Virus record (IMG/VR): IMGVR_UViG_3300021060_000001
Coordinates: 1 to 46,328 of that record
Strand: one strand, 5' to 3'
Length of the DNA stretch: 46,328 nt
DNA from: a virus
In this document: positions 5,426-25,579 of the stretch, piece by piece
Numbering within the stretch: the stretch's first letter is position 1
Layout of the letters: each line of letters starts with the position of its first letter
Made by a program: the position numbers and the translations under genes
The notes under the pieces: model-generated
Seen by the model: the letters and a program-made list of their open reading frames with translations, nothing else
Told to the model about the DNA's origin: nothing
Databases searched by the model: none

Positions 5426-5727
5426 TGACGACCGAGGTATTGTGGGAGGGCGCGCGGCCGGGGTTGTCTGACGGGCCCGAGGCGCGCCAGGAAGAACAGG
5501 ACGCACTTACGGCCGAGGAGCAGTCCCGAGACGACATGCGCCTCGTGCTCCGTGAGCCGGCAGGGCGCCGCGCCGTCTACGAGATCATCGCCGCGACGGG
5601 CGCGTTCATGCCCGTCCATGGCGAGCGCAACGCCGGCTCGCATGAGGCCGGGCTGCACATCATCGCCCGCGTGAAGGATGCGGGCCTGTCGTACTGGCAT
5701 AAGATGCTTGGGGAGAACGAGCGATGA
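5425..5727 (+). CDS. Hypothetical head-module protein (100 aa)
   Basis: TGATG overlap with the portal stop and ATGA overlap with the scaffold start. An alternative GTG start lies at 5422. Confidence 0.6.
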   Translation: MTTEVLWEGARPGLSDGPEARQEEQDALTAEEQSRDDMRLVLREPAGRRAVYEIIAATGAFMPVHGERNAGSHEAGLHIIARVKDAGLSYWHKMLGENER

Positions 5728-6551
5728 ATACGAACCCGAACCGTGGAGGTTCCATTGCAGCCATCCTCTCTGCCGGCATCGGCCCGCGCATTTATCTGGC
5801 CCCGCCCGACGAGGGTGGCGGCGGCGATGCTGGCGCTGCTGGGGCTGGCGGGGATGGTGCTGGCGGCGCGGCCGGCGCTGGCGATGGAGCCGGAGGAACT
5901 GCTGACGCTGGCGGCGCTGCGGGCGACGGCGCGCAACCCTCGGCCCTGGCTGGCGCACTCGCGACCTCTGCCGAGGGCGCAGCGAAAGCCGCCGAGCCGG
6001 CCGCCGATGACGGCAAGGTGGAAGGCAAGGACAAGGTAAAGCCGGCCGGTGAGGAGCCGCCGCCGGCCGACGACGCCACGCCGAAAGACGTGGATGGCAA
6101 TGCCCTGCCCGAGAAGTACGAGATCAAGATGGCGGACGGCGTCGAGATGGACGCGAAGCTGATGGAGGTGGCCGAGCCGCTGTTCCGCGAGCACAAGATG
6201 AGCCCGGCGCAGGCGCAGGCCATGACCGACCTGTACACCCGCGTGACCGGCGAGGCCATCGCGAAGCATTCCGAGATGGTGAACGGCTGGCTGAACGAAG
6301 CCAAGGCGGACCCGGAGATCGGCGGCGCGAAGTTCGAGGAAAACCTCGCCATGGCGTCGAAGGGGTTCCAGGCGTTCGGAGACGAACGGGCCATGCAAAT
6401 CCTCGACACCTACGGCCTCGGGAACAACCCCAACATCTTGCGTTTATTCACGCGGATCGGTAAGGCTATGGGCGAAGGCGCAACCATCCTGCCCGGTTCG
6501 GGTACGGGTCGCGTGTCCGACGCACAGGCACTATACCCGAACATGAAGTAG
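5724..6551 (+). CDS. Scaffolding protein (275 aa) with a Gly/Ala/Asp low-complexity N-terminal region
   Basis: Lies between portal and major capsid. Has a GGGGDAGAAGAGGDGAGGAAGAGDGAGG tract followed by a helical, charged C-terminal half. Confidence 0.65.
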   Translation: MNTNPNRGGSIAAILSAGIGPRIYLAPPDEGGGGDAGAAGAGGDGAGGAAGAGDGAGGTADAGGAAGDGAQPSALAGALATSAEGAAKAAEPAADDGKVEGKDKVKPAGEEPPPADDATPKDVDGNALPEKYEIKMADGVEMDAKLMEVAEPLFREHKMSPAQAQAMTDLYTRVTGEAIAKHSEMVNGWLNEAKADPEIGGAKFEENLAMASKGFQAFGDERAMQILDTYGLGNNPNILRLFTRIGKAMGEGATILPGSGTGRVSDAQALYPNMK

Positions 6552-10090: not shown

Positions 10091-11350
10091 GTGGCCGATC
10101 TGATCCTTGAGCGCATCCAAGAGCGCCGCTCCGTCGATGCCGGGTATCGTCCGCCGACGACGGGGCCGCGCGCCCTGCGGCAGGGCGAGCCGTTCGTGAA
10201 CCTGACGGACCTCAAGCGGTGCATTGGCAAGGGCGACGGGACGTTCATCGAATATTCCCTCTACCAAGATGCGCAGCAGCAGGCGGCCCAATCCGGCGCG
10301 GTGAACGTCATGGATGGGTTCGTGAGCGAGGTGCAGCTTGCGGCCGGCGAAAACGTGGCGCCGAAAGTTGCGGAAGCGGCGGCGTTCGCCCGAGCGAATG
10401 GGCGGCGCGCGCTTTTCTTCCCGGCCCACGCACGGACGTTCCTGCTGAACGGTCCGACCATTGATATCAGTGGTCTGCGAGTTTACGGCCTGTCGAGCGG
10501 TAGCGCCCTGGGGTCTCGGCTGAAGACCGAGGCGGCCGTGAGCACGTTCGCCACGGTATCGGCGCACGCAACCGTCGAGAACCTGGGGATGGAGCACTAC
10601 GGCTCTGCCGGCCTGATGATCGACCTTATCCAGACGGAAGGCGATCTTGTCCGCAACTGCAACCTCGTGTCGCTGAATAACACGAACCAGGGCGCTTTGA
10701 TCCGCATCGGCGGCTCGAATTCGTACGTGGACGACTGCACGATCTCGAATTTCTCGCCGGGCCAGTACAGCATCCTATTCACGCGAACGGCCTCGCGCAT
10801 CCTTATCAACAGCGCCGTGCGGCGGACGTATTTCGGCGGCCCCGGCGCTGGTATTAGCATCGGCGCGGCGCCGGGGCAGGCGCGACCTGAGGGTATCACA
10901 ATTTCGCAGTGCAACAGCGTCCTTACGGGCGGGCCGTTGGTCGAACTGTCCTCGTGTCTCAATTTCCGCATGACGGACAACATGGTGGACCAGGGGCCGG
11001 CGAGCGGGGCTATATTGCTCGGCCCGGCCGGTCAGGGCATCATGGGCGTGTCCATCGTCGGGAACTACATCTCGAACGCCTCGGGAGGCAACAACGGCGG
11101 CGGCATCGTTCATGTCGGTTCGGGTGCGGCCAGCCTAACTGGCATGGTCGTAATGGGGAACGAGTTCGGGTACTGCAACACCGGGGCCTCGTTCGGTCAG
11201 AACGCTTCGCTGATCTCGTTCGTGGGGAACTACTTCCACGACATGCTGACCGGCATTAGCGTAGCTTTGTTTGATAACGCTCAGGCAAAGTTTGGAGAAA
11301 GCAACCTTCTCGGCCCCGGCGTTGTTGGCCTAACCACAATCGGGTCCTGA
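10091..11350 (+). CDS. Second parallel beta-helix tail protein (419 aa), putative tailspike/depolymerase
   Basis: GTG start 6 nt after GAGGG. Repeated PbH1-like turns (VRNCNLVS, VDDCTISN, ITISQCNS, VSIVGNYISN, MVVMGNEFG, ISFVGNYFHD). Confidence 0.65.
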   Translation: MADLILERIQERRSVDAGYRPPTTGPRALRQGEPFVNLTDLKRCIGKGDGTFIEYSLYQDAQQQAAQSGAVNVMDGFVSEVQLAAGENVAPKVAEAAAFARANGRRALFFPAHARTFLLNGPTIDISGLRVYGLSSGSALGSRLKTEAAVSTFATVSAHATVENLGMEHYGSAGLMIDLIQTEGDLVRNCNLVSLNNTNQGALIRIGGSNSYVDDCTISNFSPGQYSILFTRTASRILINSAVRRTYFGGPGAGISIGAAPGQARPEGITISQCNSVLTGGPLVELSSCLNFRMTDNMVDQGPASGAILLGPAGQGIMGVSIVGNYISNASGGNNGGGIVHVGSGAASLTGMVVMGNEFGYCNTGASFGQNASLISFVGNYFHDMLTGISVALFDNAQAKFGESNLLGPGVVGLTTIGS

Positions 11351-11351
11351 T

Positions 11352-13451
11352 ATGCCCAAGAAGCTCCAAGCGTCGTTTACAGGCGGGGAACTCGACCCCA
11401 AGCTTCACGCGCGCGTGGATCTGGCGAAGTACGCTACGGGCGCGGCCAAACTCACGAACTGGATCGTGCATCCCTACGGGGGCGCCTCGAACCGTCCGGG
11501 TCTGGAATTCGTTGCGGCGTGCGGCGGGTCGGCCACGACGGTTCGTCTCGTGGAATTCCAGCTTTCGCCGAACGATACGTGCGTGCTGGAGTTCGGCGAC
11601 GGGTACATGCGCGTACTTCGCCGGGGCGCGCTGATCCTGAAGGACGGGGTTCCCTATTCGATCCAGACGCCGTATGGCGCCGACGTGGTGAAGGGCCTGC
11701 GGTTCGAGCAGTCGAACGACGTTCTCAAGATCACGACGCAGGCGTACCGGCCGCAGAACCTATCCCGGTTCGCGCTCGATGACTGGCGGTTCTCGGATAT
11801 CGTGGTGACACCCGCTGTCCCGGCGCCGAACGACCTGGAGGGAAAGGCGAACGACCGCCCTCTGGCGACAGATGGAAGTGAGGCTCGGTATAACTTTCCG
11901 AGCACGTACACGGTTACGTCGATAGACGCACTTACTGGACGCGAAAGTGCACCGTCGTCTTTCGTCACGATCCAGAACGATCTAACCCTGCGAGGGTTCA
12001 ACAACGAGATCCGGTTTACTAAGGTAAACGGCGCATCGTCTTACAACCTTTACAAGCAGGATAAGACGATTTTCGGTATCATAGGAACTCTTTTCCAGGA
12101 TCAGCCCCCAGGAAGCGACGGAAAGATCGGGTATCAGGACGCGAACGTTTCGCCAGATACATCGAACGGAGTTCCACAACAGAAAGACCCATTCAACGGG
12201 GAGGGCAACTGGCCTCGCGCGTCGGCGTACTTTCAGCAGCGCGTCGTTCTTGGCGGCCCTGCAAACAAGGCGAACCAAATCAACCTTTCGCAGTCCGGCG
12301 ATTTCAACAACTTCAACACCTCGTTCCCGACGCGGGATAGCGACGCGATTACGTTCGCGCTCGCCGCCCGTCAGCGCCAGGACGTTCTATTCTTCATTGC
12401 CGTGGAGGATCTGATCGTCTTCACCACGTCGGGAGAGTGGCGCGTGCGCGGGAACGATCAGGGCACGATCACGCCGAGCGCTGTCGATGCTCGTCAGCAG
12501 TCGTCGTATGGGTGCGCTGAGAACGTCCAGCCGCTCATCGTTCAGGACGATATCGTGTTCGTCCAGGCGAAGGGGCAGACGGTCCGTTCCATCGCGTACG
12601 ATTTCGGGCAAAACAAGTATCGAGGCGTGAACCTATCCCTGCTTGCCGGCCATCTGTTTGAGGGGCGAACCATCGTCCAGATGGCGTACGCGCAGGTCCC
12701 GCACTCGACCATGATGTTCATCATGAGCGACGGCGGCGCACTGTCGTTCACCTACCTCAAAGACGAAGAAGTCTGGGCGTGGTCGCCCCACGTCACCGAT
12801 GGCATTTTCGAGAGTGTTGCCGCCGTCGCAGAGGGCGAGGAGGACGTATTCTATTTCGTCGTTCGGCGCACGGTCCAGGGGCAGCAGGTCCGGTATATCG
12901 AGCGCCGCCGGTCCCGCCGAATGGACAACATTTTCCAGTCGTTCTTCGTGGACAGCGGCCTGCAATATCTCGGGCCTACCACGTCGAGTGTGTCGGGGCT
13001 CGGGCACCTTGAGGGCCGGCAGGTTGTTGGGGTCGTGAACGGCCGGGTCGTCCAGGGCCTGACGGTCGTGAACGGCCGGGTCGATTTGCCGTTCCCCGGC
13101 GAGGCGATTGCGCTCGGCCTGTACTATGGCTCGGAACTGGAGACGCTGGACCTCGACGTGGGGAACGTCTCGCTGAACGGCGAACTTCGGAATATCCAGA
13201 AGATCGTCGTCCACGTTGAGAAGACAGCCGGATTGCTGCACACCGCGACCGGGAACGACGGCCTGTACGGTCACGACGTGCGCGGCGACGAGGGCGAGGA
13301 AGCGCCCGGCGGCCTGTTCACGGGCTCGTATGAGGCGAAGGTGGACGGTGATTGGAACAACAACGGGCGCGTGCGCTTCTCTGTCGCCCTAACGCCTGCT
13401 ACGATCCTCGCCGTGGTTCCTCAATTCGAGGCGGGGGGAGATGCAGAATGA
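11352..13451 (+). CDS. Tail tubular protein B / nozzle (699 aa) with a low-GC FN3-like insertion
   Basis: N-terminus SFTGGELDPKLHARVDLAKY...GGASNRPG resembles gp12-type nozzle proteins. Size and position agree. The insertion carries VNGASSYNLYKQ. Confidence 0.7.
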   Translation: MPKKLQASFTGGELDPKLHARVDLAKYATGAAKLTNWIVHPYGGASNRPGLEFVAACGGSATTVRLVEFQLSPNDTCVLEFGDGYMRVLRRGALILKDGVPYSIQTPYGADVVKGLRFEQSNDVLKITTQAYRPQNLSRFALDDWRFSDIVVTPAVPAPNDLEGKANDRPLATDGSEARYNFPSTYTVTSIDALTGRESAPSSFVTIQNDLTLRGFNNEIRFTKVNGASSYNLYKQDKTIFGIIGTLFQDQPPGSDGKIGYQDANVSPDTSNGVPQQKDPFNGEGNWPRASAYFQQRVVLGGPANKANQINLSQSGDFNNFNTSFPTRDSDAITFALAARQRQDVLFFIAVEDLIVFTTSGEWRVRGNDQGTITPSAVDARQQSSYGCAENVQPLIVQDDIVFVQAKGQTVRSIAYDFGQNKYRGVNLSLLAGHLFEGRTIVQMAYAQVPHSTMMFIMSDGGALSFTYLKDEEVWAWSPHVTDGIFESVAAVAEGEEDVFYFVVRRTVQGQQVRYIERRRSRRMDNIFQSFFVDSGLQYLGPTTSSVSGLGHLEGRQVVGVVNGRVVQGLTVVNGRVDLPFPGEAIALGLYYGSELETLDLDVGNVSLNGELRNIQKIVVHVEKTAGLLHTATGNDGLYGHDVRGDEGEEAPGGLFTGSYEAKVDGDWNNNGRVRFSVALTPATILAVVPQFEAGGDAE

Positions 13452-13914
13452 GTTGGTGGTTCGTCCCGCTGCTGACGGTGATGTGGATCTGTTTGCTGGC
13501 GTGCTACGCGGTGTCGATCTTCGGGAGATCGCTGCAACGTCGCTTGCTCCTCCGGCAGGTGCGATTGCTCGGTGCCTTGCCGCCTCTGACCGGACATGGG
13601 TCGGGCTCCTTGACGGGGAGCCTATGTTTATATCGGGCATATCCCGTGCCAACTTCATGTCTGCCCGTAGGGCTCCATGGCTCCTCGGTACGCCCCTGAT
13701 CGACACGAACCCCCGGCCGTTCCTGCGGTACACGCGGGCGGCGATGCCAGGGCTGCTGGCGGCGCATCCGTGGATGGAGAACCACATCGACGCCCGGTCC
13801 ACGCGGACGATTGCGTGGCTGCGGTGGCTGGGTTTCGTGATACATGATGCGAAACCCTACGGCGCCCTCGGCCGCCCGTTCCACCGCTTCTCGATAGGAG
13901 GCCCCCATTTGTGA
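13441..13914 (+). CDS. DUF2833/GNAT-fold-like internal virion protein (157 aa, gp13-position)
   Basis: VRPAADGDVDLFAGVLRGVDLREI...PWLLGT...ENHIDARSTRTIAWLRWLGF pattern as I recall it for DUF2833. Overlaps the nozzle stop by 11 nt. Confidence 0.5.
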   Translation: MQNELVVRPAADGDVDLFAGVLRGVDLREIAATSLAPPAGAIARCLAASDRTWVGLLDGEPMFISGISRANFMSARRAPWLLGTPLIDTNPRPFLRYTRAAMPGLLAAHPWMENHIDARSTRTIAWLRWLGFVIHDAKPYGALGRPFHRFSIGGPHL

Positions 13915-14419
13915 AATCGCGACCCTCTCGGCCATCGCCGGTATCGTCGGGACGGGCGTGTCGGCGCTCGGCGCGATCCAGCAGGGGCAGGCCCAATCGC
14001 AGGCGGCGAAGTATCAGGCCGCCGTGGATCGCAACAACTCGATCCTGGCGCAGCGGTCAGCCGCCGACGCCGTGGAGCGCGGCAAGGAAGCCGAGGCGAC
14101 CCAGCGCCGGAAGACGACGATCACGCTCGCCCGTCAGCGCGCGGCGGTGGCGTCGAGCGGCATCGAACTCGACACGGGCTCGCCCCTGGATATCCTCGGC
14201 GACACGGCGCAGTTCGGCGAACTCGATGCGCAGACGGTGCGTGGGAACACGGAACGCGAGCGGCTGGGATACGAGGCGCAGGGGAGCAACTTCCGCGCGT
14301 CTGCCGGCCTCAACGACATGAAGGCGTCGAGCGCCAAGACCGCCGGGATGATCGGCGCGACAAGCTCGCTTCTGTCCGGGGCCACGTCGGTTGCGGGCAA
14401 CTGGTATAAGATGAAGTGA
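13907..14419 (+). CDS. Small ejectosome/core protein. Proposed ATT start at 13907; the first canonical start is GTG 13958 (153 aa).
   Basis: Frame opens after TAG 13895-13897. AGGAGG (13896-13901) lies 5 nt upstream of ATT. The extra 17 codons encode the hydrophobic ICEIATLSAIAGIVGTG with GC-rich third positions. The body contains ...ARQRAAVASSGIELDTGSPLDILGD.... Confidence 0.5.
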   Translation: MCEIATLSAIAGIVGTGVSALGAIQQGQAQSQAAKYQAAVDRNNSILAQRSAADAVERGKEAEATQRRKTTITLARQRAAVASSGIELDTGSPLDILGDTAQFGELDAQTVRGNTERERLGYEAQGSNFRASAGLNDMKASSAKTAGMIGATSSLLSGATSVAGNWYKMK

Positions 14420-14507: not shown

Positions 14508-17500
14508 ATGGCGATCCAAGTTCCAGCCGTCACGAACCGCAGCGTCCAGACGGAGCGCGCCCCGAACCAGTTCCAGTCCGACGCGGGCGCGACGCCCGAC
14601 GCCTTCGGCGGGCTTGAGGGTCGCGCGCTTCAGGGGCTCGGCGGTGCGGCCATGCAGGGCGCGAGCGTCCTCAACGATGTGGCGCAACAGCGAAAGGCCG
14701 AGGACGACACCCGGACCGTGCTGGCGGCGACGAACAGCCTTCAGGACCGCAAGCGCGAGTTCGACTACGGCAAGGATGGGCAGGGCGGGGAGCTTGCGCG
14801 CCAGGGCCTCGACGCGCTCGGTGGCGAGCAGCGCACGGTCGAGTTCTTCAAGGCGACCACGGCGGACATCGCGTCGAAACTGACCGACCCGAAACAGAAA
14901 CTCGTGTTCGACAAGGTGGTCTCGCAACAGCGCGACGCGAGCCTCGACACCGTGGCCCGGCGCGCGGCCGACGAGCGGATCAAGGGCGCGACCATCGTCG
15001 CCAAGACCACGCTCGATCTCGCGTCCAAGGCGGCCGTCGATGACGCCCACTCGGATAAGACCGCTGACGCGCAACTGAACCTGGGCCTTGCCGCGATCCG
15101 GTCGAACATTACGGGCCAGCCGAAAGAGGCCGTCGAGGCGGCGGCGGCCGAGTTCCGGTCCCAGCTACAGACGCAGCGGATCGCGCGCGTCGCCGTGGAC
15201 AGCCCGTCGCAGGCCGCAGCGATGTACGAGCGGCTGAAGCCGCAGATCGCGGGCGCCGACCACATCAAGGTCGAAAAGCTCCTAGAGCCGATGCGCGCCC
15301 GCCAGGAAGGGCAGGCTATCGCGAGCGAGATCACGGGCGCGCCCGGCCCGGCGACGCGGCAGGTGGCCGCCGTGGCCCTCGCCACTGCGCCGCCGCTGGT
15401 TCAGGCTGTGGCCGGCGTCGAGAGTTCGGGCAACCCGAACGCGGTCTCGCCGAAGGGTGCGGCCGGCGTGATGCAGGTGATGCCCGAGACAGCGCGCGAG
15501 ATCTCGGCGAAGCTCGGCGACGGACTGATCGGGCCGGACACGCCGCCGGCCGAGATCAAGCGCATCCTCGCGGACCCGGCCGTGGGCCGGCGGTACGGCA
15601 CGGACTACCTCAAGACACAGCTACAGCGGTTCGGCGGTGACGTGCCGACCGCGCTCGTGGCGTACAACGCCGGCCCGGCCGCGGCGGAACGCTGGCTGAA
15701 AGAGCGCAAGGGGCCGAACGACCTCTCGTCCCTGCCGGCAGAGACACAGAAGTACGTCCCCAAAGTCATGTCCCGGCTGGCGGACGCACAGGGCGGTGGG
15801 CCGTCCGAGGTGGGCGGCAAGCCCGACGTGTTCAACACCGTCCGCATGGGCGCGTTGCCACCGCCCGGTCAGAAGATGACGGCCGACAATTGGTCGCTGA
15901 AGTTCTACAAGCCCGCCGATCTCCTTGCGCCGACCGGGGGCGGGCGCCAGATCGACGCGCGGGCGGCGACCATGGCCGACGCGCTCGGATCGCAGTTCTT
16001 CGAGAAGACGGGCATCCGTATCGGCGTGAACGACGTGAACGACAACCCCGGCACGGCGGGCAAGCGGCGCGGGGCGAGCGACCCCGGCGACAACCCGCAC
16101 GTCTCGGACAGTCAGCACCTTCACGGGAAGGCATTCGATTTTCAGATCCAGAGCTTGAACGAAGCGCAGAAGGCGCAGTTCTTGCAGATCGCGCGACAGG
16201 TCGGCTTTTCGGGGGTGGGGTTCTATGAAGGAAAATCCGGGCACCTCCACTTGGATACGGGCAAGCCGCGCTCGTGGGGAACGATGCCCAAATGGGCCGG
16301 CGGCTCCATGGCTGTCCCGGCGCTCGGGGTCTCGGATATGGCAGTCGCGCCCACTCTCGGCGGTCTTCCGGTTCCCCCCTCCATGCGTGCGGCTGCGGGC
16401 GGCACGGCAACGGGCGCAGCACGACCAGTTAGTGGCGGCCCTGCTGGAACGGGTACATCCTTCCTGCCGCCTGCACTGACCGCCGACGCCCGCGACCTCA
16501 TTGGCACGCCGACGCCCACGGTCTCTTCCGTGGCGGCGGGGGCTTCGTTCGGCGCTGGCCAGCCGGGCGGCATGGTTCCGGCGCCGGTCGCGTCCTCGAT
16601 CCGCCTGCCCGACGACTTCGACGCGCAGTCCTGGCGGGATGCCGTCTCGTCCGACCCGCGCCTCGACAGCCCGGCGAAACAGGCGGCGGCCCGGTCGGCC
16701 GTCGAGCGCGAGATCCGTGCGCGCGAGGGACAAAAGAAGTCCGCCTTGCGCGACCTGAGATCCGAGGCGATCCGCACCGTTCAGGGCGGCAAGGGCTCGG
16801 ACGACCTGCCGCCCGAGATCTATTCCGCGCTGCTGGAAGCCGACCCGAAGTTCGTCACCGACACCCTGCCGGCGATGGAAGACCGGATCAGGAAGCGGAA
16901 GGATAAGACCGACCCGGAGGCGTACCATGAACTCGCGCTCATGGATGACGCCAAGCTCGCCGATCTCGACCTCACGGCGTGGCGCGCGCGGCTGTCGCAG
17001 GGCGATTACGAGAAGTTCAGCGACCGACAGAAGGCGGCAGGCAAGGCGACCGTCGAGGACGCCAACCGCTGGGATGGTATCCAGACTCGGCAGGCCCTCG
17101 CGAACAACGCTCTCAAGTCCGCCGGGATCTTCCCCGACAAGGACGACGCCGAGGCGAACCGCCGGGCGGGGATTTTCTACGGCAGGCTGGACACGGCGGT
17201 TGCCGCGTTCAAGGCCGAGAACAAGCGCGAGATGAGGCCGGCAGAGTTGCAGGAGACGCTCACGAACCTCCTCACGCCGATCAATGCGGGCGATTGGACG
17301 GGAAAGACGCAATACCTGTTCGAGCAGGGCACGGCCGGCGAGAACGCATTCCGCCGCGCGAACCAACTCCCCTTGGTCGGCACCACGGGGAGCGTCGCCC
17401 CGGCGCGCAAGCTTGAGGAGATCCCGCAGGCGAGCCTGCAAACGCTCCTCGACAACCACACGGCCATGCGCGGCGTGGCGCCGACCCCGACGCAGGCGAT

Positions 17501-17738
17501 GCAATTTTACAACGACGGCGTGGCCTTGGAGACCGGGCGCGACCCGAAACCGGACGGTCCGACGCGCACGGAAATCATCTCGGTCCTGCGCCGCAAGTTC
17601 GGCGCCGCGATCCAGACGGACGCCTCGCGTTCCGCCGAGTTCGAGGCTAAGATACAGGACACCTACAACCGGACGCTCCGGTCCCTTCTGACGCCCAAGC
17701 CGGCGGCGACGACCGCCCCGGTGGCAATCCCCTTCTGA
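14508..17738 (+). CDS. Internal virion/ejection protein with lytic transglycosylase (SLT) and peptidase M15A domains (1076 aa)
   Basis: SLT motifs: GVESSGNPNAVSPKGAAGVMQVMP and VAYNAGPAAAERW. M15A zinc motifs: SQHLHGKAFDFQI and GVGFYEGKSGHLHLDTG. Confidence 0.85.
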   Translation: MAIQVPAVTNRSVQTERAPNQFQSDAGATPDAFGGLEGRALQGLGGAAMQGASVLNDVAQQRKAEDDTRTVLAATNSLQDRKREFDYGKDGQGGELARQGLDALGGEQRTVEFFKATTADIASKLTDPKQKLVFDKVVSQQRDASLDTVARRAADERIKGATIVAKTTLDLASKAAVDDAHSDKTADAQLNLGLAAIRSNITGQPKEAVEAAAAEFRSQLQTQRIARVAVDSPSQAAAMYERLKPQIAGADHIKVEKLLEPMRARQEGQAIASEITGAPGPATRQVAAVALATAPPLVQAVAGVESSGNPNAVSPKGAAGVMQVMPETAREISAKLGDGLIGPDTPPAEIKRILADPAVGRRYGTDYLKTQLQRFGGDVPTALVAYNAGPAAAERWLKERKGPNDLSSLPAETQKYVPKVMSRLADAQGGGPSEVGGKPDVFNTVRMGALPPPGQKMTADNWSLKFYKPADLLAPTGGGRQIDARAATMADALGSQFFEKTGIRIGVNDVNDNPGTAGKRRGASDPGDNPHVSDSQHLHGKAFDFQIQSLNEAQKAQFLQIARQVGFSGVGFYEGKSGHLHLDTGKPRSWGTMPKWAGGSMAVPALGVSDMAVAPTLGGLPVPPSMRAAAGGTATGAARPVSGGPAGTGTSFLPPALTADARDLIGTPTPTVSSVAAGASFGAGQPGGMVPAPVASSIRLPDDFDAQSWRDAVSSDPRLDSPAKQAAARSAVEREIRAREGQKKSALRDLRSEAIRTVQGGKGSDDLPPEIYSALLEADPKFVTDTLPAMEDRIRKRKDKTDPEAYHELALMDDAKLADLDLTAWRARLSQGDYEKFSDRQKAAGKATVEDANRWDGIQTRQALANNALKSAGIFPDKDDAEANRRAGIFYGRLDTAVAAFKAENKREMRPAELQETLTNLLTPINAGDWTGKTQYLFEQGTAGENAFRRANQLPLVGTTGSVAPARKLEEIPQASLQTLLDNHTAMRGVAPTPTQAMQFYNDGVALETGRDPKPDGPTRTEIISVLRRKFGAAIQTDASRSAEFEAKIQDTYNRTLRSLLTPKPAATTAPVAIPF

Positions 17739-17746
17739 GGTACACC

Positions 17747-20700
17747 ATGGCGGGCATGTTCGACGCGGCTGTTGACGAGATTGCAGCCGGCGAGGACAAG
17801 GCCGCCCGCGCCGCCGCGCCGGGATCGACGCTCGAGCCGCCCGCGCCGACGGTCGCGCCCGCGCAGAACCCCGGCGACGTGCTGCCGGGCCTGCCCGCCG
17901 ATCTGGCGACGCCCGCGCCCGCTCCCATGTTGCCCGGTCCGGCGCAGGATTTGGCGCCGACGGTCGCGCCGACGGTCCAGGCCGCCCCGGCGGCGCGGGG
18001 CATGTTCGACGCAGCGGTTGAGGAGATCGCGACGGAGGACACAAGCCGGCTGTCGTCGGCGCTGGAAACGGCCCGCACGCAGGACCCGGTGCGCTACACG
18101 GAAGCGGCTCGGATTGCCGAACGCGATGGCCTCCCGCTTGAGTTCGTTACGCAGAACTTGGACGACCTCAAGACGCGCGCCACCGCGAACGACATGCGCA
18201 AGAGCTTAGAGGCAAGCCCCCGCCTGAAGCAATGGTTTCTGACGGGCGACAACGCGAACACGGTCAAGCTGGACGATCTGCACAAGCTGTCCGGTCTCGG
18301 CTGGCTCATGGAAGCGACCGGCGCGCAGTGGTCGGACGGGTGGGATCAGCGTCAGTCGGCGGACATCCGGTATCGGCAGATCTTCGGCCGGGCAACACCG
18401 GAGGAGATCGCGCGCGCCGACGTGGCGGACCGGGCTGAGAAGCGGGATTACGGCTCGACCGGGTTCTTTCAGGGCGCCATCCCAGCCCTTGCCGGCCAAC
18501 TCCCTAACATGGCCGGCGGGCTGCTCGCGGGTATCCAGGCGGCCCCGTACGCGGCGACGCTGGGCACGGCGGTCGGCGCGTCGGTCGGTTCGCTCGCGGG
18601 CGGCATTGGGACCGTGCCGGGCGCTGTGGCCGGGTTCGGCTCGGGCGTCGCCACGGGCATGATCCAGGGCCGCGCGACGGACAGCTTCAAGCAGGAAGCC
18701 GGCGGGGCATACAGCGAGTTCCTACAGATCAAGGGCGACAACGGCGAGCGCGTGGACCCGGAGGTGGCGAAGGGCGCGGCGCTGATCGCGGGCGCGGCGA
18801 ACGCAGCCCTGGAAACCATCGGCGAGGCGGCGCTTGAGCGGCTCGTGCCGGGTCTCGACAAGTACGGCGTCGGCGCGCTACTGCGGAACGGCTCGCGCGA
18901 GGTGCTGAAGGAGGCGATCAAGCGGCCGTCCATCGCCGCCGTGCTTAAGTCGTTCGGCGGGAACGTCGCGCGCGGCGGGGCGACGGAGATCGGGACGGAA
19001 GTCCTGCAAGAGGCCGTGACGATCATGTCTCGGATCGCGACGGAGAAGAACAGCGCGGGCGAGTTCCAGCCCATGGAGGCTGCCGAGATCTCGTCGCGCC
19101 TCGTGGAGACGGCGGAACAGACAGCGCAGGCCATGCTGATCCTGACGCCGGCCCTGGGCTCGACCCGGCTCGGGCGCGACCTGACCGTGTGGAAGCGCAG
19201 CGAGGATATGCGTGCGATCTACCAGGGGGCGAACGAGGCGGCGGCGACGACCGAACTCAGGACCCGCGCGCCGGAAAAGTACCTTGATGCGGTGAAGTCG
19301 TTCCTCGGCGACGGCAAGGCCAGCGACACGGTGTACGTGTCCACGGACAAGCTGACCGAACTGTTTCAGTCGATGGATTTGTCGCCGGCCGATCTGGACG
19401 CGCGGATCGACGGGTTCTCGGCGCGGTATGCGGAGGCCCTGGCGACCGGGAACGACACGCACATCGACATGGCCGCGTTCCAAACGCACATCGCTGGCAC
19501 GCCGCTGGGCGAGGCGCTGATCGAACATCAGCGGTGGCACCCGGAACTCGCGACGGTGGCCGAGGCGCGCGACGCCCTGGCCGAGGCGCGGTCCGCGCAG
19601 GACAGCATGCTTGAGGAGGCGCTGAACGCGGCGAAGGCGGACGCGGCGAAGGCGGCCCCGCGCAAGCAAGTCGAGGACAGCGTGTACGCGATGCTCGTCA
19701 ACATCGGTGAAAGCCCCTCGACGGCGCGGGCGCAGGCGGTGTTGCAGGGCGCGTTCTTCGGGACGATGGGCGAGCGGGCCGGGATCGACCCGGTGCAGTT
19801 GTTCAACGACCAGGGCCTCGACATTCGCCGGGCGATGCCGGACGGGCTGGACTACCGGAAGACGGATGAACTCGATTTCGCTCTGGACGCGATCCGCAAG
19901 GGCGACGCGGAACGGGCCGGCAAGCTGCGTCGGAAGGGCCAGGGCGCGAGCCTCGGGTCGTTCCTGAAGTCGAGGGGCGGCCTGCGCGAGACCGACGCCT
20001 TTGCCGGCGAACTCCGCGCGCGAGACCTGAAGGGCGGACTGCGTGCGAAGGAAGGCGCCGGTCTCGATCTCGATAGCGCCTCGCTCGCGGCGGCCGAGGC
20101 CGGGTACTTCCCGAACGCGGTGAACGATGACGGCACGATCAACCGCGAGGGGCTGGTCGAGGCCCTGTTGTCCGCCGTGGATGAGGAGACCGCCGGCCGC
20201 CCGCTGTTCACGCTGCGGCCGGACGAAGTGCAGATCGACACCCGGCTCGCGCGCGTGGAGGCGCTGGCGGAGGAGATGGCGGCGCTCGGCCTCGACACGG
20301 CGTCGATGACGAACGACGAAATCCGCACCGAACTCATGAAGGCGTCCAGCCCGAACGCGACTGAGGGGGCGTTGTTTCAGGAGGCGAAGCCACGCCCGGC
20401 CTGGATGGAGGAGATCCTTAGCAAGAGCCACAAGCGCGACGCGGTGGCGAAGCGGGCTGCTGAGGCCGGCGGCACGGTGCGGCTCAAGAACCCGGACGGG
20501 CGCGTTGCTGCGGCCGGGCCGGATATGTCGGCGCCGGGCGGGTTTCGGCTGACCCGGTTCGATAGCGAGGGGCCGGTTGGGCACACGGAACACGCATCGT
20601 TGGAGGAGGCGGTTCGCGAGGGGATGCGGAACGGCTACCAGCCGGCGGCCGAGTTCTTCCAATCCACCGACCTCGCCGGTCCGCAGGCGGACAAGCGCGG

Positions 20701-23700
20701 CTCGATCCAGTTCCAGGGCGAGCGCACGGTCATCAACCTGTTCCAGGCGGCGAACCTCTCGACGTTTCTGCACGAAAGCGCCCACCTGTTCCTTGAGGTG
20801 AGCAAACAGGTGGCGGAACGGCCCGTCGAGCCCGGCGCGAACGATGTGATCCGTGACGACTGGCGCACGGTTCTGGCCTACATCGGCGCCAAGGAAGGCG
20901 AGGCGATCCCGCGCGAGGCGCACGAGAAGTTCGCCAAGGCGTTCGAGACGTATCTTTCCGAGGGGCGCGCACCGTCCGACGAACTGCGCGGCGTGTTCGA
21001 GCGGTTCAAGTCGTGGATGCTCCGGGTCTATCGCGGCGTCCAGCGCGCGGTCGGCCTGCCGGCCATCTCGCCCGAGATCCGCGACGTGTTCGACCGGATG
21101 CTCGCGACGGATCAAGAAATCGCCGAGGTGCAGTCCGACCGGGCGGTGCGCCCGATGTTCGCCGACGCCGCTGCGGCGGGCGTGACGGACGTGCAGTGGG
21201 CGAAGATGGTCAAGGCGGCCGAAGCCGCTACAGACGCCGCCAAGGGCACGCTGATGGCCCGCATGATGGGCGAGCGGGCGCGGGAACAGACGGCCGAGTG
21301 GAAGGCGCAGAAGGAAGCGATCCGCGCCGAGGTGGTGGACGACCTGTCACAACGCCCGGTCTATCAGGTCCAGCACTACATCCGCACGGGCGAGATCCTG
21401 AACAGCACCGAGACCGTGCCGCCGGACATCGGCGAACGTCGCCTCGACCGGGCGTGGCTCGTGAACCACTTCGGCAAGGATGTTCTGTCGCGCCTGCCCA
21501 AGCAGTCCGGCCGTCTCGTCTACGTCGAGAAGGGCGGGATCAGCCCCGACGAAATGGCTGACTGGTTCGGCTTCACGTCCGGCGAGCACATGATCGGTGA
21601 GATGCTGTCGGCCGTCCCGTACCAGCGCGCCGTCGTGGCGCGCACCGACGAACTCATGCGCGAGCGCAACGGCGACTTGCTGTCCAATCAGGCGGCGGTT
21701 GCCGAGGCTGCGGCGACGGCTTTCCACAACGACGTGCGGGCGCCGTTCCTCGAACTCGAATTGCAGGCGCTCGCGTCGAAGGCCAAGATCAAGGCCGGCA
21801 AGGTGCTGCCGCAGAAGGTTGCCCGCCAGATGGCCCGCGATCTGATCCGGGGGAAGAAGGCCAGCGAGGCCGGGCGCGTGGCCGTGTTCGCCAGGGCGCG
21901 CGACAAGGCGGCGCGCGCGGCCGAGACGGCGATGCTCCGCGAGGACTGGACGGCGGCGGCGGAGGCCAAGCGGCAACAGATTTTCAACCACTACCTGACC
22001 CTGGAAGCGCAGTCGGCGCGCGACGAGGCCGAAGCGATCCGGCGGTACCTCGACAAGTTCTCGGACCGGAAGCGGCCGGGCGGCGTGGACCCGGACTATC
22101 TCGACCAGATCGAGGGCATCCTTGAGCGGTTCGAGTTCAAGCGAGCGACGAGCCTGCCGGCCATTGAGCGGCGCAAGACCCTGGCCGCGTTCGTGGCTGA
22201 AGCGGAGGCGCGCGGCGACGCGCTGCTGATCCCGCAAGACCTTCTCGATAAGGCGGCGCTCACGTCCTACAAAGACATGACCATGGAAGACCTCGACGCC
22301 CTGCGCGACGTGGTGAAGAACGTCGAGCACCTGGGCCGGCTGAAGAACCGTCTGTTGGAAAAGGGCCGGCTCGTGTCGTTCGAACGGACCCGCGACGAGT
22401 TGGTGGCGCAGGCGCGCAAGACGCCGACGAAGAAGGCGCAGAAGTACCGGAACCCGACAGGGTGGGAGCGGTTCGCGAACGGCGTCGCGGGCGTGGATGC
22501 GTACCTGCTGAAGATGGAACAGGTGTTCCAGTGGCTCGATTTCGGCGATGCCAGCGGTCCGTTCTCGCGGATCGTGTTCGGCAAGTTCGTGGAGGCGCAG
22601 AACCGCAAGAGCGAGATGCAGCTTGCCGTGTCGGCGAAGCTGAAGACGATCCTCGACGGCCTCGACGCCGGGTATCTGAACGAGCGCAAGGCGGTCCCAG
22701 CGCGCCCCGAGTTGTCGTTCCTGCGCTCGGAACTCTACGCCATCGCGCTCAACCAGGGCACGGAAAGCAACCGCGCCAAGGTCCTCAAAGGCGAGACCTC
22801 GGCGACTAACTCGTTCCGGTCTGAGGATGAGATGAACTCGGCGCTGTCCCTCCTCACAAAGGAAGATTGGGACCGGGTGCAGTCCATGTGGGATGTGCTT
22901 GAGGGGTTCTGGCCTGAGACCGCCGCGCTTGAGCGCCGGCTGACCGGCGTCGAGCCGCCGAGGCTGGAGCGTCGCAAGGTCGCTACGGCGTTCGGTGAGT
23001 ATGCGGGCGGGTACTACCCGATGGTGTACGACCCGGCGCAGGCGTTCGACGTGCAGCAGCGGTCCGACAAGGAGCTCGATGCGCAGTTCGACAACACCAC
23101 GTTCTCGCGGCCGGCAGTCGCGCACGGGTTCACGAAGGCCCGCGTCGAGAACTACGCGCGGCCGATCTTGCTGGACCTGCGCGCGCTCACGGGGCACATC
23201 GACAAGGCAATCCAGAACATCACGCACCGCGAGCCCGTGCGCGATGCGCTGAAGCTCATCACCGACCCGACGTTGCAGGCGTCGCTCATCGAGACGATGG
23301 GCCGCCCGGTCTATCAGGAGATGTACAAGTGGCTCGACCGGATCGCGAAGGACCGGGGCGAGCCGCCGGCCAACGCGACCGTAGCGCGGGTGCTGTCCGG
23401 GGCGCGCGCGAACATCAGCCTGTACGCTATGGGGTTCCGGCTGACCACGGCACTCTCACAATTCGCCGGCTGGTCGAACTCGCTGGAGAAAGTGCGACCG
23501 GGGTTCCTCGCGTCCGGTTTGTACGAGATGACGTTCCGCCCGCGTGAAACGTGGGATCTGATTTCGTCCAAGTCGGGCGAGATGCGCGACCGCACGAATA
23601 ACCTCGACCGCGACGTGCGCTCGGCGCTTGCCCGGCTTGAGGGCAAGACCGGCGCCGTCGATGCGTTCAAACGGCACGCGTTCTTCTTCACGGCGATGGC

Positions 23701-24436
23701 AGATCGCATGGTTGCCGGCCCGACGTGGCTCGGCGCGTACAACCAGCACCTCGCCACGTACCCGACCGACGAAGCCGGGGCCGTGCGCTCAGGCGACGCG
23801 GCAGTACGGCTGACGCAGGGGGCTGGCGCAGCGAAAGACCTGTCCTCGATTATGGGAAATAAGAACGAGGCGCTTCAGGTCTATACGATGTTCTATTCGT
23901 ATTTTAACCTGTACTATAATCGCCTGCGCACACTCGGCCGCGACACTCGCGTTATGCTTCGCGACGGCGATTACGAGGACATTCCGCACTTGCTCGCGCG
24001 GTCCCTAGCTCTCGTGATCTTGCCGGCCGTGATGGCGGACGCGCTCGTGGGCAAGTGGAAGGACGAAGACGAGACCGTCGCGTGGTGGGCGTTCCGGAAG
24101 GCGAGCCTGTACCCGCTGATGTCCGTGCCCATCGCCCGCGATATCGCCGGATCTCTCGATAGCGGCCTCGCCTACCAGATGTCCCCGCTCGCTCGGTTCG
24201 GCGAGCTGGCGACGAAGCTGGCGCAGGACGCGAACAAGGTCGCGCAGGGCGAACAGGTAGAAGGGCGGATGGTTGCCAAGCGCGCGGCGGAACTTGCCGG
24301 GTATACGTTCGGCCTGCCGCTTGGGCAGACGGTTGGCACGGCGTCGAACGTGTGGCAAGGGTTGGAACAGAACGATTTCAAGACGCGCGATCTGTTGTTC
24401 GGCCGCCGTGCGTTTGGGGACACCCGCGATCAGTAG
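17747..24436 (+). CDS. Giant virion/ejection protein (2229 aa) with a zincin-like HExxH motif
   Basis: One uninterrupted coding-like ORF. Duplicated N-terminal GMFDAAV[DE]EIA motif. Glycine-zipper hydrophobic segment (GLLAGIQAAPYAATLGTAVGASVGSLAGGIGTVPGAVAGFGSG). FLHESAHLF at aa 1009-1013, with HEKFAKAFETYLSEG downstream. Confidence 0.8.
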   Translation: MAGMFDAAVDEIAAGEDKAARAAAPGSTLEPPAPTVAPAQNPGDVLPGLPADLATPAPAPMLPGPAQDLAPTVAPTVQAAPAARGMFDAAVEEIATEDTSRLSSALETARTQDPVRYTEAARIAERDGLPLEFVTQNLDDLKTRATANDMRKSLEASPRLKQWFLTGDNANTVKLDDLHKLSGLGWLMEATGAQWSDGWDQRQSADIRYRQIFGRATPEEIARADVADRAEKRDYGSTGFFQGAIPALAGQLPNMAGGLLAGIQAAPYAATLGTAVGASVGSLAGGIGTVPGAVAGFGSGVATGMIQGRATDSFKQEAGGAYSEFLQIKGDNGERVDPEVAKGAALIAGAANAALETIGEAALERLVPGLDKYGVGALLRNGSREVLKEAIKRPSIAAVLKSFGGNVARGGATEIGTEVLQEAVTIMSRIATEKNSAGEFQPMEAAEISSRLVETAEQTAQAMLILTPALGSTRLGRDLTVWKRSEDMRAIYQGANEAAATTELRTRAPEKYLDAVKSFLGDGKASDTVYVSTDKLTELFQSMDLSPADLDARIDGFSARYAEALATGNDTHIDMAAFQTHIAGTPLGEALIEHQRWHPELATVAEARDALAEARSAQDSMLEEALNAAKADAAKAAPRKQVEDSVYAMLVNIGESPSTARAQAVLQGAFFGTMGERAGIDPVQLFNDQGLDIRRAMPDGLDYRKTDELDFALDAIRKGDAERAGKLRRKGQGASLGSFLKSRGGLRETDAFAGELRARDLKGGLRAKEGAGLDLDSASLAAAEAGYFPNAVNDDGTINREGLVEALLSAVDEETAGRPLFTLRPDEVQIDTRLARVEALAEEMAALGLDTASMTNDEIRTELMKASSPNATEGALFQEAKPRPAWMEEILSKSHKRDAVAKRAAEAGGTVRLKNPDGRVAAAGPDMSAPGGFRLTRFDSEGPVGHTEHASLEEAVREGMRNGYQPAAEFFQSTDLAGPQADKRGSIQFQGERTVINLFQAANLSTFLHESAHLFLEVSKQVAERPVEPGANDVIRDDWRTVLAYIGAKEGEAIPREAHEKFAKAFETYLSEGRAPSDELRGVFERFKSWMLRVYRGVQRAVGLPAISPEIRDVFDRMLATDQEIAEVQSDRAVRPMFADAAAAGVTDVQWAKMVKAAEAATDAAKGTLMARMMGERAREQTAEWKAQKEAIRAEVVDDLSQRPVYQVQHYIRTGEILNSTETVPPDIGERRLDRAWLVNHFGKDVLSRLPKQSGRLVYVEKGGISPDEMADWFGFTSGEHMIGEMLSAVPYQRAVVARTDELMRERNGDLLSNQAAVAEAAATAFHNDVRAPFLELELQALASKAKIKAGKVLPQKVARQMARDLIRGKKASEAGRVAVFARARDKAARAAETAMLREDWTAAAEAKRQQIFNHYLTLEAQSARDEAEAIRRYLDKFSDRKRPGGVDPDYLDQIEGILERFEFKRATSLPAIERRKTLAAFVAEAEARGDALLIPQDLLDKAALTSYKDMTMEDLDALRDVVKNVEHLGRLKNRLLEKGRLVSFERTRDELVAQARKTPTKKAQKYRNPTGWERFANGVAGVDAYLLKMEQVFQWLDFGDASGPFSRIVFGKFVEAQNRKSEMQLAVSAKLKTILDGLDAGYLNERKAVPARPELSFLRSELYAIALNQGTESNRAKVLKGETSATNSFRSEDEMNSALSLLTKEDWDRVQSMWDVLEGFWPETAALERRLTGVEPPRLERRKVATAFGEYAGGYYPMVYDPAQAFDVQQRSDKELDAQFDNTTFSRPAVAHGFTKARVENYARPILLDLRALTGHIDKAIQNITHREPVRDALKLITDPTLQASLIETMGRPVYQEMYKWLDRIAKDRGEPPANATVARVLSGARANISLYAMGFRLTTALSQFAGWSNSLEKVRPGFLASGLYEMTFRPRETWDLISSKSGEMRDRTNNLDRDVRSALARLEGKTGAVDAFKRHAFFFTAMADRMVAGPTWLGAYNQHLATYPTDEAGAVRSGDAAVRLTQGAGAAKDLSSIMGNKNEALQVYTMFYSYFNLYYNRLRTLGRDTRVMLRDGDYEDIPHLLARSLALVILPAVMADALVGKWKDEDETVAWWAFRKASLYPLMSVPIARDIAGSLDSGLAYQMSPLARFGELATKLAQDANKVAQGEQVEGRMVAKRAAELAGYTFGLPLGQTVGTASNVWQGLEQNDFKTRDLLFGRRAFGDTRDQ

Positions 24437-24439
24437 GGG

Positions 24440-25579
24440 ATGACGATGAGCCTGTTCACCGACAAGGCCCCGGCGATCATGCGGGACCTCATGGCGGCCT
24501 TCGCGCTGGGCGAGGACGATGCCGCCGCCATCGTCGGGAACCTTGGGCACGAGAGCGGCGGGTTCAAGTTCCTGCAAGAGAAGAAGCCCCTCGTGCCGGG
24601 CAGCCGGGGCGGGTGGGGTTGGGCGCAGTGGACCGGCCCGCGCCGCCGCGCGTTCGAGGCGTGGGTCGCGGCGAAGGGACTCGATCCGGCGGGCGACGAG
24701 GCGAACCTTGGGTTCCTCGTCCACGAACTGCGCACGAGTGAGGCCAAGGCGATCCCGGCGGTGAAGGCCGCGCGCGGCTTGGAAGCCAAGGTGAAGGCGT
24801 TCGAGGCGGCGTTCGAGCGGGCCGGCGTCAAGCACTACCCATCTCGGATCAAGTACGCGGAACAGGCATTGGCCGCCTACAAGGGCGGCGCGCCTGCCCT
24901 GGCGCCGGTCAAGCGCCCGGCCGCGCCTCGTCGCTGGGCCGAAGACACGCTCGCCGTGTTCGAGATCCGCGCTGTGCAGGAGCGCCTGCGCGCGCTCGGG
25001 TATTTCATGGTCGGCAAGGTCGATGGCGATTGGGGCACGTCCACCACGGCGGCGGTGATCGCACTACAGACGCAGGCAGGCATCACGGCAGACGGGCACT
25101 ACGGCCCCGAGACTAAGGCCGCGCTCGCCGACGACGCGAACAAGCGGGTGGTCCCGGCGGCGCGGGCGAACACGACGGCCAAGGATCTGCGGAACCAGGG
25201 CTCGACTATTGCTATCGAGGGCAACCGGGTCACGTGGACTTCGGCGCTCGGTCTGGTCGCCGCCCTGGTCGCCGCCGCGCACGCCGCCTACACCGCGCCG
25301 GCAGAGTTGCCGTTCGGCTCCTCGATCTTCCTCGGGCTCGTCCCGCCGCCGTTCGGCTCGATCCTCTCGGCCGTGGCGCCGTACCTGCTGGCGTTCATTC
25401 CCCTGGCATACAACGCGCTTGCGGCGCAGGGCATCGTCCGGGCGCGGGTCGTTGCGGAACAGACGGGATTGCATAACGGCGAGCCGTCGCCGGCCCCGAC
25501 GACCGAAGAGGAACCATCCGACGCGCCGCCCCTTGGTGGCCTGCTGGGGTCTCTGTTCGGCCGGGGTCGGAAGTCGTGA
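24440..25579 (+). CDS. Lysozyme-like muramidase with a PG_binding_1 domain and C-terminal transmembrane segments (379 aa); endolysin or virion lysin
   Basis: GNLGHESGGFKFLQE...GGWGWAQWTGPRR (phage tail lysozyme-type motif). VQERLRALGYFMVGKVDGDWGTSTTAAVIALQTQAGITADGHYGPETKAAL (PG-binding repeat). Hydrophobic WTSALGLVAALVAAAHAAY and FGSILSAVAPYLLAFIPLAY. Confidence 0.75.
   Translation: MTMSLFTDKAPAIMRDLMAAFALGEDDAAAIVGNLGHESGGFKFLQEKKPLVPGSRGGWGWAQWTGPRRRAFEAWVAAKGLDPAGDEANLGFLVHELRTSEAKAIPAVKAARGLEAKVKAFEAAFERAGVKHYPSRIKYAEQALAAYKGGAPALAPVKRPAAPRRWAEDTLAVFEIRAVQERLRALGYFMVGKVDGDWGTSTTAAVIALQTQAGITADGHYGPETKAALADDANKRVVPAARANTTAKDLRNQGSTIAIEGNRVTWTSALGLVAALVAAAHAAYTAPAELPFGSSIFLGLVPPPFGSILSAVAPYLLAFIPLAYNALAAQGIVRARVVAEQTGLHNGEPSPAPTTEEEPSDAPPLGGLLGSLFGRGRKS

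Follow-up and report, generated by a model that had tools for sequence, protein, structure and literature searches.

The 46,328-nucleotide (nt) stretch analysed here (the window; positions 1 to 46,328 of IMG/VR virus record IMGVR_UViG_3300021060_000001) is essentially the entire ~46-kb genome of a podovirus, and its largest open reading frame (ORF), at 17747-24436 on the plus strand, is an intact gene for a giant protein of 2229 amino acids (aa) that contains an HExxH motif. Sequence comparison indicates that the HExxH domain belongs to the constant core of the protein family and is not a variable effector, and it is always found directly downstream of a slot in which the cargo varies. We consider the chances about even that the giant protein is a packaged modular delivery vehicle whose HExxH domain processes the protein itself at junctions of the type hydrophobic-[F/Y]-Q, and this is the best reading because the domain is constant within the family. 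The architecture, its conservation, the synteny, the pattern of the junction motifs and a remote homology to LPD1 are shown; that the giant protein is packaged in virions and ejected, binds metal and is proteolytically cut, and at which sites, is inferred. An initial annotation had described the product of this gene, correctly named there as the largest of the genome, as an injected protein and a candidate effector protease; that interpretation is partly supported, with injection and proteolysis both putative.

The segments of the homologues were mapped onto the window protein (query positions, q), resulting in an N-module at q~75-880, the variable slot at q880-972, the HExxH domain at q982-1132 and a C-module at q1133-2220. 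The distance from the HExxH motif to the C-terminus is ~1100 aa in nearly every member, even where similarity between the C-modules is undetectable. By tblastn, residues ~980-2220 are conserved, with identities of 27-33%, in Bbp10 of BPP-1, in the Pseudomonas AF and Xanthomonas CP2 phages and in Caulobacter, Vibrio, Nostoc/Microcystis and Octadecabacter phages. The slots of the 77 homologues contain LPD23, ART-PolyVal, ddrB-ParB, PBECR1/3/5, LPD3, GNAT, SNF2 helicase or Zeta toxin. An AlphaFold2 model of the C-module is almost all-helical, with a predicted local distance difference test (pLDDT) score of 80, and no fold match to it was obtained by Foldseek in a PDB library holding entries up to April 2026. 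Searches of the PDB sequences with the family profile or with the whole protein (phmmer) also gave nothing. As far as we could find, this regularity of slot, junction motif and chassis is undescribed.

HESAH is the sole HExxH in the giant protein (~0.018 expected by chance) and lies where the initial annotation had placed it. Lack of conservation in homologues had been named there as a finding that would speak against a functional site; the motif was found in 75 of 76 homologues and is thus under functional constraint. H1009, E1010, H1013, E1060, A1063, Y1069, G1073 and P1076 are invariant in the aligned homologues and E1067, W1090, Y1095, D1116 and R1117 are nearly so. It had also been proposed that a glutamate further downstream supplies the third metal ligand of a gluzincin, and a conserved candidate for it does exist: the segment HEKFAKAFETYLSEGRAPS begins at aa 1059, and the invariant E1060 and E1067 (95%) both lie on a predicted helix. 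The AlphaFold2 model of the domain, built from a 40-sequence alignment, has a pLDDT of 88 and a predicted template modelling score (pTM) of 0.78. Its elements are, in order, a beta-hairpin, the HExxH helix (27-47 in the numbering of the model), a short helix, a helix (79-95) on which E1060 and E1067 lie, and two further helices. As for the edge strand of a mixed beta-sheet by which zincins are recognized, only a two-strand hairpin is predicted ahead of the HExxH helix. The modelled layout is compatible with a minimal zincin.

The assignment to the gluzincins themselves found no significant counterpart among characterised gluzincin families in Pfam, the PDB or Foldseek. When 40 members of the domain family and 10 divergent segments, extended in length, were scanned against Pfam with permissive E-values, no metallopeptidase family was recovered. 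The weak profile matches in the PDB include zincins that are aligned on the motif (Spartan, E = 0.088; lethal factor, 0.41; FtsH, 1.2), and Foldseek searches with the domain model returned a best E of 2 against the PDB and only unannotated homologues against BFVD. Pfam scanning and structure prediction, both suggested in the initial annotation, resulted in an LPD22 match and a confident model of the HExxH region but in neither a metallopeptidase family nor a fold match. A relationship to LPD1 (PF18796) was detected differently. LPD1 was matched below the Pfam threshold in 4 of the 40 family members (best E = 0.015), and gp47 of Stx phage phi24B, a virion-packaged polyvalent protein with LPD1, carries HEWFH...E-MAARAFERYV; an LPD1 alignment was therefore built. 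When the HExxH family was compared with this alignment by hhalign, the probability was 95.1% (E = 3.2e-8) over 81 columns that span the strand together with two helices, the one with HExxH and the one with E..A.AFE.Y, and the equivalent E..A.R.FE motif is invariant in LPD1. With an hhalign probability of 95% and E = 3e-8, the sequences identify the HExxH domain as a remote homologue of LPD1 and not as a member. LPD1 has the HEWFH motif and a differing N-terminal half. Some LPD1 members are labelled "CLCA_X family" by NCBI, and the LPD1 profile found nothing in the PDB. To our knowledge, no activity has been demonstrated for LPD1.

The HExxH domain is abundant. A profile search of 1.84 billion representatives found it in 12,399 clusters, 6,095 of them at E <= 1e-30, and most of the proteins are 2000-3500 aa long. 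Some contain 2-4 copies of the domain amid other domains, and the study of Iyer et al. (2017, PMC5512222) likewise describes processing metallopeptidases interspersed with other domains. The multi-copy proteins include P0078-P0084, P0096, P0120 and P0151; in P0079 the copies lie near aa 833, 1267, 1544 and 1970.

The slot of the window protein is bounded by two similar motifs. The N-module ends in ...GALFQ878, a cassette follows that begins EAKPRP... and ends in AAEFFQ972, and the sequence then continues with STDLAGPQADKRGS. The 94-aa cassette (aa 879-969 with its AAEFFQ tail) has LFQ878 and FFQ972 on either side. In P0002, which is 93% identical, GALF is followed by SADLAGPQPDKRGS, and at the DNA level exactly the stretch between the F-Q codon pairs is absent. 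No Pfam family matches the cassette, and its sole database relative is P0226, a stand-alone protein of 83 aa with 58% identity. The gene for P0226 (L004 6001-6252) belongs to an array of small ORFs beside a ParB_N/HTH_ParB gene on an 11.5-kb contig, a locus that looks like the accessory or early region of another mobile element. Because this relative is free-standing, capture of a stand-alone accessory gene into the slot is suggested. The cassette was also considered as a compositionally foreign insert and this was rejected, as its GC content and its GC content at third codon positions are inside the range of the gene.

Similar boundaries are found in relatives with other cargo. P0004 reads ALFQ, FAGE..LPD23..REFYQ, TAG, and P0010 reads ALFQ, ParB-like, ELFQ, TTG. 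P0006 contains two cassettes in a row (ALFQ, LPD23, REFYQ, TTG, GNAT, REFYQ, TTG), and the Pfam coordinates put LPD23 and GNAT exactly between the motifs. The cassettes of P0004, P0006, P0010 and P0011 end in a REF[YF]Q-type motif (ELFQ in P0010). In BPP-1 Bbp10, PBECR1 (643-729) lies between LFQ589 and FYQ768, the latter 31 residues before HESGH797. The window protein has nine matches to [LFMIVY][FYW]Q when 1.2 are expected, and when all 20 residues are compared at the third position in the family's N-terminal parts, Gln shows the strongest enrichment (2.5-fold). The positions of the motif form a sharp peak 31-50 residues ahead of HExxH. An independent set of clusters at 50% identity supplied 153 instances of the domain, of which 55 have the strict motif at most 48 residues upstream (background 0.07); these motifs are concentrated between -5 and -2 relative to the profile start, where most of the other instances have hydrophobic-x-Q. 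Judged from sequence, this is the pattern that polyprotein cleavage sites would look like. No such junction motif is mentioned by Iyer et al. (PMC5512222).

Several further features of the slot were observed. ART cassettes (e.g. P0021, P0053 and P0074) start directly after F-Q (..YFQ, PAFHGSP..; ..LFQ, SAWHGSP..) and end in ..FVIFDD..I..YYQ, and in other members a recurring tail, ..QIKSA.GN.G.FDP....IL.Q, precedes the HExxH domain. In P0004, P0006, P0008, P0009 and P0011-P0014 the slot (aa 886-1170 in P0006) holds an LPD23-annotated region followed by its own HExxH (LHEIAHAIQH) and a GEVEARN helix, and these relatives therefore appear from sequence to carry a second, different HExxH domain as cargo.

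The assignment to the polyvalent proteins rests on LPD22 (Pfam PF18834, E = 2.2e-15, 57 bits against a gathering cutoff of 28.6), a domain defined on such proteins by Iyer, Burroughs, Anand, de Souza and Aravind (2017, PMC5512222). By this sequence evidence the giant protein belongs to the phage polyvalent proteins, a known kind, and the synteny with BPP-1 and Cobetia Carin1 agrees with the initial annotation, which had put a polyvalent-type protein in the ejection-protein position. Like the proteins of that study, it is a giant multidomain protein among virion genes in which LPD22 is present, an HExxH domain is the hub, and orthologues swap ART, PBECR, ParB-like and GNAT domains. The role proposed there for the HExxH metallopeptidase domain is processing of the polypeptide. 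Two differences are that the HExxH domain described here is matched by no Pfam model, the metallopeptidase models included, and that the study defines neither a cleavage or linker motif nor a fixed chassis of slot, HExxH domain and ~1100-aa C-module.

In the window, in BPP-1 (bbp13, bbp12, bbp11 and bbp10) and in Carin1, the nozzle gene is followed by those for a small internal virion protein, an SLT-peptidase and the giant protein, in this order. The T7 gp14/15/16 and cyanophage A4 gp26-gp29 ejectosome proteins share the position after a nozzle and a small internal protein, and the partner with transglycosylase and peptidase domains. In the solved pentameric pre-ejectosome of cyanophage A4, two giant proteins are assembled with a small helical protein and one that combines SLT and M23. 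The authors of the work on PhiXacm4-11, a CP2-like phage, take gp33/34/35 as analogues of the T7 core proteins gp14/15/16 and treat gp35 (2300 aa, without a structural relative according to them) as a core protein, and phi24B gp47, a polyvalent protein of 2811 aa, is abundant in virions and invisible by cryo-electron microscopy. Gene position and precedent thus give good support, by analogy, to an internal, ejected protein. Homology to A4 gp26/gp27 was rejected since BLASTP found no match; the family profile found none in the PDB, and the C-module model has no fold match in a Foldseek PDB library whose dates should cover the T7 and A4 entries.

In the proposed mechanism, the giant protein of a BPP-1/epsilon15-like podovirus would be packaged in the capsid core alongside the SLT/M15 protein and, on infection, be released into the cell. 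The parts of the vehicle would be, in order, a duplicated docking peptide, LPD22, a glycine-zipper N-module, a variable slot holding one 94-aa cargo, an invariant LPD1-like HExxH...E domain of the zincin type and a constant helical C-module of ~1100 aa. The HExxH domain would probably act as a metal-dependent processing peptidase that cuts its own polyprotein at or near LFQ878, FFQ972 and perhaps LFQ541. Such a cut would free the cargo and the N-module from the C-module, either before packaging or after ejection. The host-directed effectors would be the variable cassettes rather than the HExxH domain, and the ART, PBECR, GNAT and ParB-like cassettes of the relatives and the 94-aa domain of the window protein are effector candidates.

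Several observations weigh against self-processing. The HExxH domain has no significant similarity to a characterised peptidase or a solved fold by Pfam, PDB sequence or Foldseek searches. The junction of P0002 is ALF-S, without Gln; approximately half of the family has only the looser hydrophobic-x-Q at the junction; and in relatives that contain ART the junction motif coincides with the last ART strand. No virion proteomics for the family was found in the literature on Bbp10, Carin1 or the 'crystallin' proteins. The motifs could be structural domain ends or recombination linkers, and the N4 virion RNA polymerase (vRNAP, gp50), a protein of the same layout, is packaged unprocessed, so that proteolysis is not a given.

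The N4 paradigm is the main rival. N4 gp50 consists of a membrane N-domain, the RNA polymerase (RNAP) as cargo, an HExxH-bearing C1 domain and an all-alpha C2 domain of ~1125 aa without structural relatives; it is packaged uncleaved and ejected, and its HExxH-bearing C-terminal domain is needed for packaging and represses the RNAP allosterically. By this model, which we consider rather unlikely, the HExxH domain and the C-module would be a non-proteolytic chassis for encapsidation, ejection or regulation, with a metal site of structural function and with F-Q motifs that mark domain ends or recombination linkers. The layout is shared, as the window protein has a putatively membrane-associated N-part, a cargo, the HExxH domain and a 1097-aa all-alpha C-module without a fold match, and the precise absence of the cassette between the F-Q codon pairs in P0002 fits linker-mediated recombination. 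The cargo of N4 is an RNAP, however, and homology to the N4 C-terminal domain could not be demonstrated: in hhalign comparisons with 57 non-redundant Schitoviridae C-terminal domains the probabilities were 4% for C1, 1% for C2 and 0.3% for the whole, the HExxH alignment being in register and not significant, and Foldseek gave no PDB match. The parallel is therefore architectural only. In addition, no family member departs from the general-base Glu of HExxH, which is unexpected if the metal site is purely structural.

The proposal of the initial annotation, in which the HExxH domain would itself be the injected effector, a protease directed against host proteins for takeover or anti-defence, is improbable in our estimation. 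The motif is invariant, the fold is zincin-like in the model, the giant protein is probably delivered into the cell, and Iyer et al. (2017, PMC5512222) allow the metallopeptidases of polyvalent proteins to act after transfer. The domain is constant, however, and neither its position nor its neighbours change, while conflict-type effectors are exchanged in the slot beside it, and the junction motif stands at a fixed distance upstream of HExxH. Phages that infect Bordetella, Xanthomonas, Caulobacter, Vibrio and cyanobacteria all conserve the domain, and conservation across such different hosts argues against one host-specific target. A processing or housekeeping role would fit better because the domain is constant, just downstream of the slot and ~1100 aa from the C-terminus.

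It is quite improbable that the junctions are cut by another protease, from the prohead or the host. Prohead proteases process internal proteins in other phages (T4 gp21 and phiKZ gp175), and the product of gene 5724-6551, which sits between the portal and capsid genes, matches PHROG 458, labelled 'protease'. It was rejected as a prohead protease because no protease signature was found in Pfam, NCBIfam or the PDB and because it has the scaffold position; it is probably the scaffolding protein. In thousands of diverse proteins, moreover, the junction motif accompanies the HExxH domain at a constant spacing. Least probable of all is a peptidoglycan peptidase that helps the ejectosome across the periplasm: the giant gene sits between lytic genes, relatives are called 'lysin' or 'lysis protein' by GenBank annotators and the phi24B authors suggested a similar role for the metallopeptidase of gp47, but no similarity to M15, M23 or other murein peptidase families was found in Pfam, SLT, M15 and lysozyme activities are already encoded by the neighbouring genes and the 'lysin' label has no supporting evidence in the records.

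Self-processing can be extended to a more ambitious reading, which we put forward tentatively: the giant protein may be a MARTX-like self-processing effector-delivery polyprotein in the capsids of BPP-1-like podoviruses, in which the HExxH domain would release interchangeable cargo at the junctions and free-standing early genes, such as that for the 83-aa relative of the cassette, would enter the slot by gaining a junction. MARTX toxins likewise combine a chassis for translocation with effector cassettes that can be exchanged, and their own protease separates the cassettes after delivery. This is a functional analogy only, as the sequences are unrelated; the MARTX protease is a cysteine protease activated by inositol hexakisphosphate, and these toxins are secreted and not virion-borne. 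Few phage proteins are as large or as little understood as the giant polyvalent proteins, and we know of no demonstration of how their domains are delivered or separated. If the extended reading is true, it would provide a sequence rule for reading the cargo and the cleavage map in thousands of giant phage proteins. The chassis, slot and junction motif mark the contents of the slots, the 94-aa domain included, as candidate injected effectors or anti-defence proteins, and they make the processing-metallopeptidase idea of Iyer et al. testable in a family that is abundant (more than 12,000 protein clusters for the domain alone) and includes the model phage BPP-1.

Table 1. Coordinates of the giant protein gene, its parts and the neighbouring genes in the window.
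Feature	Position (nt)	Strand	Evidence
Giant polyvalent internal-virion (ejection) protein gene, putative	17747..24436	+	Single 2229-codon ORF; phrog_9880 match over full length; 77 homologues
N-terminal peptide repeat copy 1, GMFDAAVDEIA, aa 3-13	17753..17785	+	Translation; co-varying pair in homologues
Pro/Ala-rich spacer, aa 14-84 (71 aa)	17786..17998	+	28% Ala, 23% Pro
N-terminal peptide repeat copy 2, GMFDAAVEEIA, aa 85-95	17999..18031	+	Translation
LPD22 domain, aa 104-194	18056..18328	+	Pfam PF18834
Glycine-zipper segment, aa 258-308	18518..18670	+	GxxxG periodicity; uncharged run aa 265-306
Conserved L-F-Q motif in N-module, aa 539-541	19361..19369	+	F-Q pair conserved in 13-15 of 22 diverse relatives
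Junction motif 1, L876-F877-Q878, end of N-module	20372..20380	+	Motif comparison with P0002
Payload cassette in variable slot, aa 879-969	20381..20653	+	Absent from 93%-identical P0002; sole homologue P0226
Junction motif 2, F970-F971-Q972, ~10 residues before HExxH domain	20654..20662	+	Motif comparison
LPD1-like HExxH (zincin-type) domain, aa 982-1132	20690..21142	+	Conservation; AlphaFold2; hhalign against LPD1
H1009-E-S-A-H1013 motif	20771..20785	+	H, E and H invariant in 75 aligned homologues
H1059-E1060...E1067 helix with candidate third metal ligand	20921..20947	+	E1060 100%, E1067 95% conserved
Conserved, nearly all-helical C-module, aa 1133-2229 (1097 aa)	21143..24433	+	Conserved in BPP-1, AF, CP2, Caulobacter and Vibrio phages
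Helix with the highest hydropathy in the giant protein, aa ~2083-2102	23993..24052	+	Kyte-Doolittle maximum 1.93
Small internal virion protein gene (neighbour)	13441..13914	+	phrog_308, E = 1.8e-32
Gene for 1076-aa SLT transglycosylase + M15 peptidase internal protein (neighbour)	14508..17738	+	Pfam SLT 8e-23, Peptidase_M15; NCBIfam matches
Phage_lysozyme2 + PG_binding_1 protein gene (neighbour)	24440..25579	+	Domain matches

The N-terminal features given in the initial annotation were all recovered (Table 1). The DNA copies of the duplicated peptide are 88% identical and 246 nt apart, with a repeat score of z = 14.6 relative to shuffles. In ~15 homologues and BPP-1 Bbp10 both copies are retained and co-vary within each protein, e.g. 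PGLYDAAVDEI/PGLYDAAVGEI and NPFDAYGDAIV/DPFDAIGDRIV. The Bbp10 pair (aa 3-14 and 24-34) is NEFDAAVAGTLG and DPFDAAVAGVL, with the core NEFDAAVAG/DPFDAAVAG. The copies within one protein are closer to each other than to those of other proteins, which is concerted change, and the duplicated peptide is, on this sequence evidence, a family feature. An internal translation start at M86 was rejected: Met is absent from the second copy in most homologues and that copy is therefore not an alternative start. Our guess is that the repeat provides two identical docking peptides joined by a flexible linker.

The Gly/Ala stretch described as suited to membrane insertion (aa 250-320) is 25% Gly and 20% Ala, with nine GxxxG steps at 258-304, and its hydropathy is only moderate (Kyte-Doolittle maximum 1.3). 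Weak DUF6861 matches were obtained at this segment in the window protein and in homologues. The helix in the C-module with the highest hydropathy of the giant protein is a possible membrane segment.

BPP-1 Bbp10 and Xanthomonas CP2 ORF24/PhiXacm4-11 gp35 are true homologues of the giant protein, with ~28-31% identity over aa ~980-2200 and the same gene order, and their N-modules have diverged past tblastn detection. Bbp10 shares LPD22, the duplicated N-terminal FDAAVAG peptide, HESGH and the F-Q motifs around the cargo, whereas its slot contains a PBECR1 nuclease in place of the 94-aa domain. A nucleotide search of the phage collection with the giant gene gave no match, nor did an NCBIfam scan of the protein. 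GenBank labels of the homologues include 'crystallin beta/gamma motif-containing protein', 'lysin', 'lysis protein' and 'coil containing protein'. These labels are apparently based on motif or neighbourhood and are probably misleading; the records carry no supporting evidence for 'lysin' and 'crystallin' and no underlying experiment was found.

The window also encodes a T7-type portal, a GP7-type (epsilon15/BPP-1-like) capsid protein, an adaptor, a nozzle, replication genes and a terminase. The gene upstream of the giant gene carries SLT and Peptidase_M15, as had been annotated, and its stop codon is overlapped by the GAGG ribosome-binding site of the giant gene. Two ORFs of the structural module, 10091-11350 (419 aa, between the adaptor gene and the nozzle gene) and 13911-14321 (136 aa, following the small internal virion protein), gave no match in PHROG, Pfam or NCBIfam. 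The gene 3' of the giant gene (24440-25579) encodes Phage_lysozyme2 + PG_binding and its counterpart at the P0002 locus (L006 9268-10452) encodes Phage_lysozyme (PF00959) + PG_binding; between the two loci the catalytic domain is swapped and the binding domain is retained.

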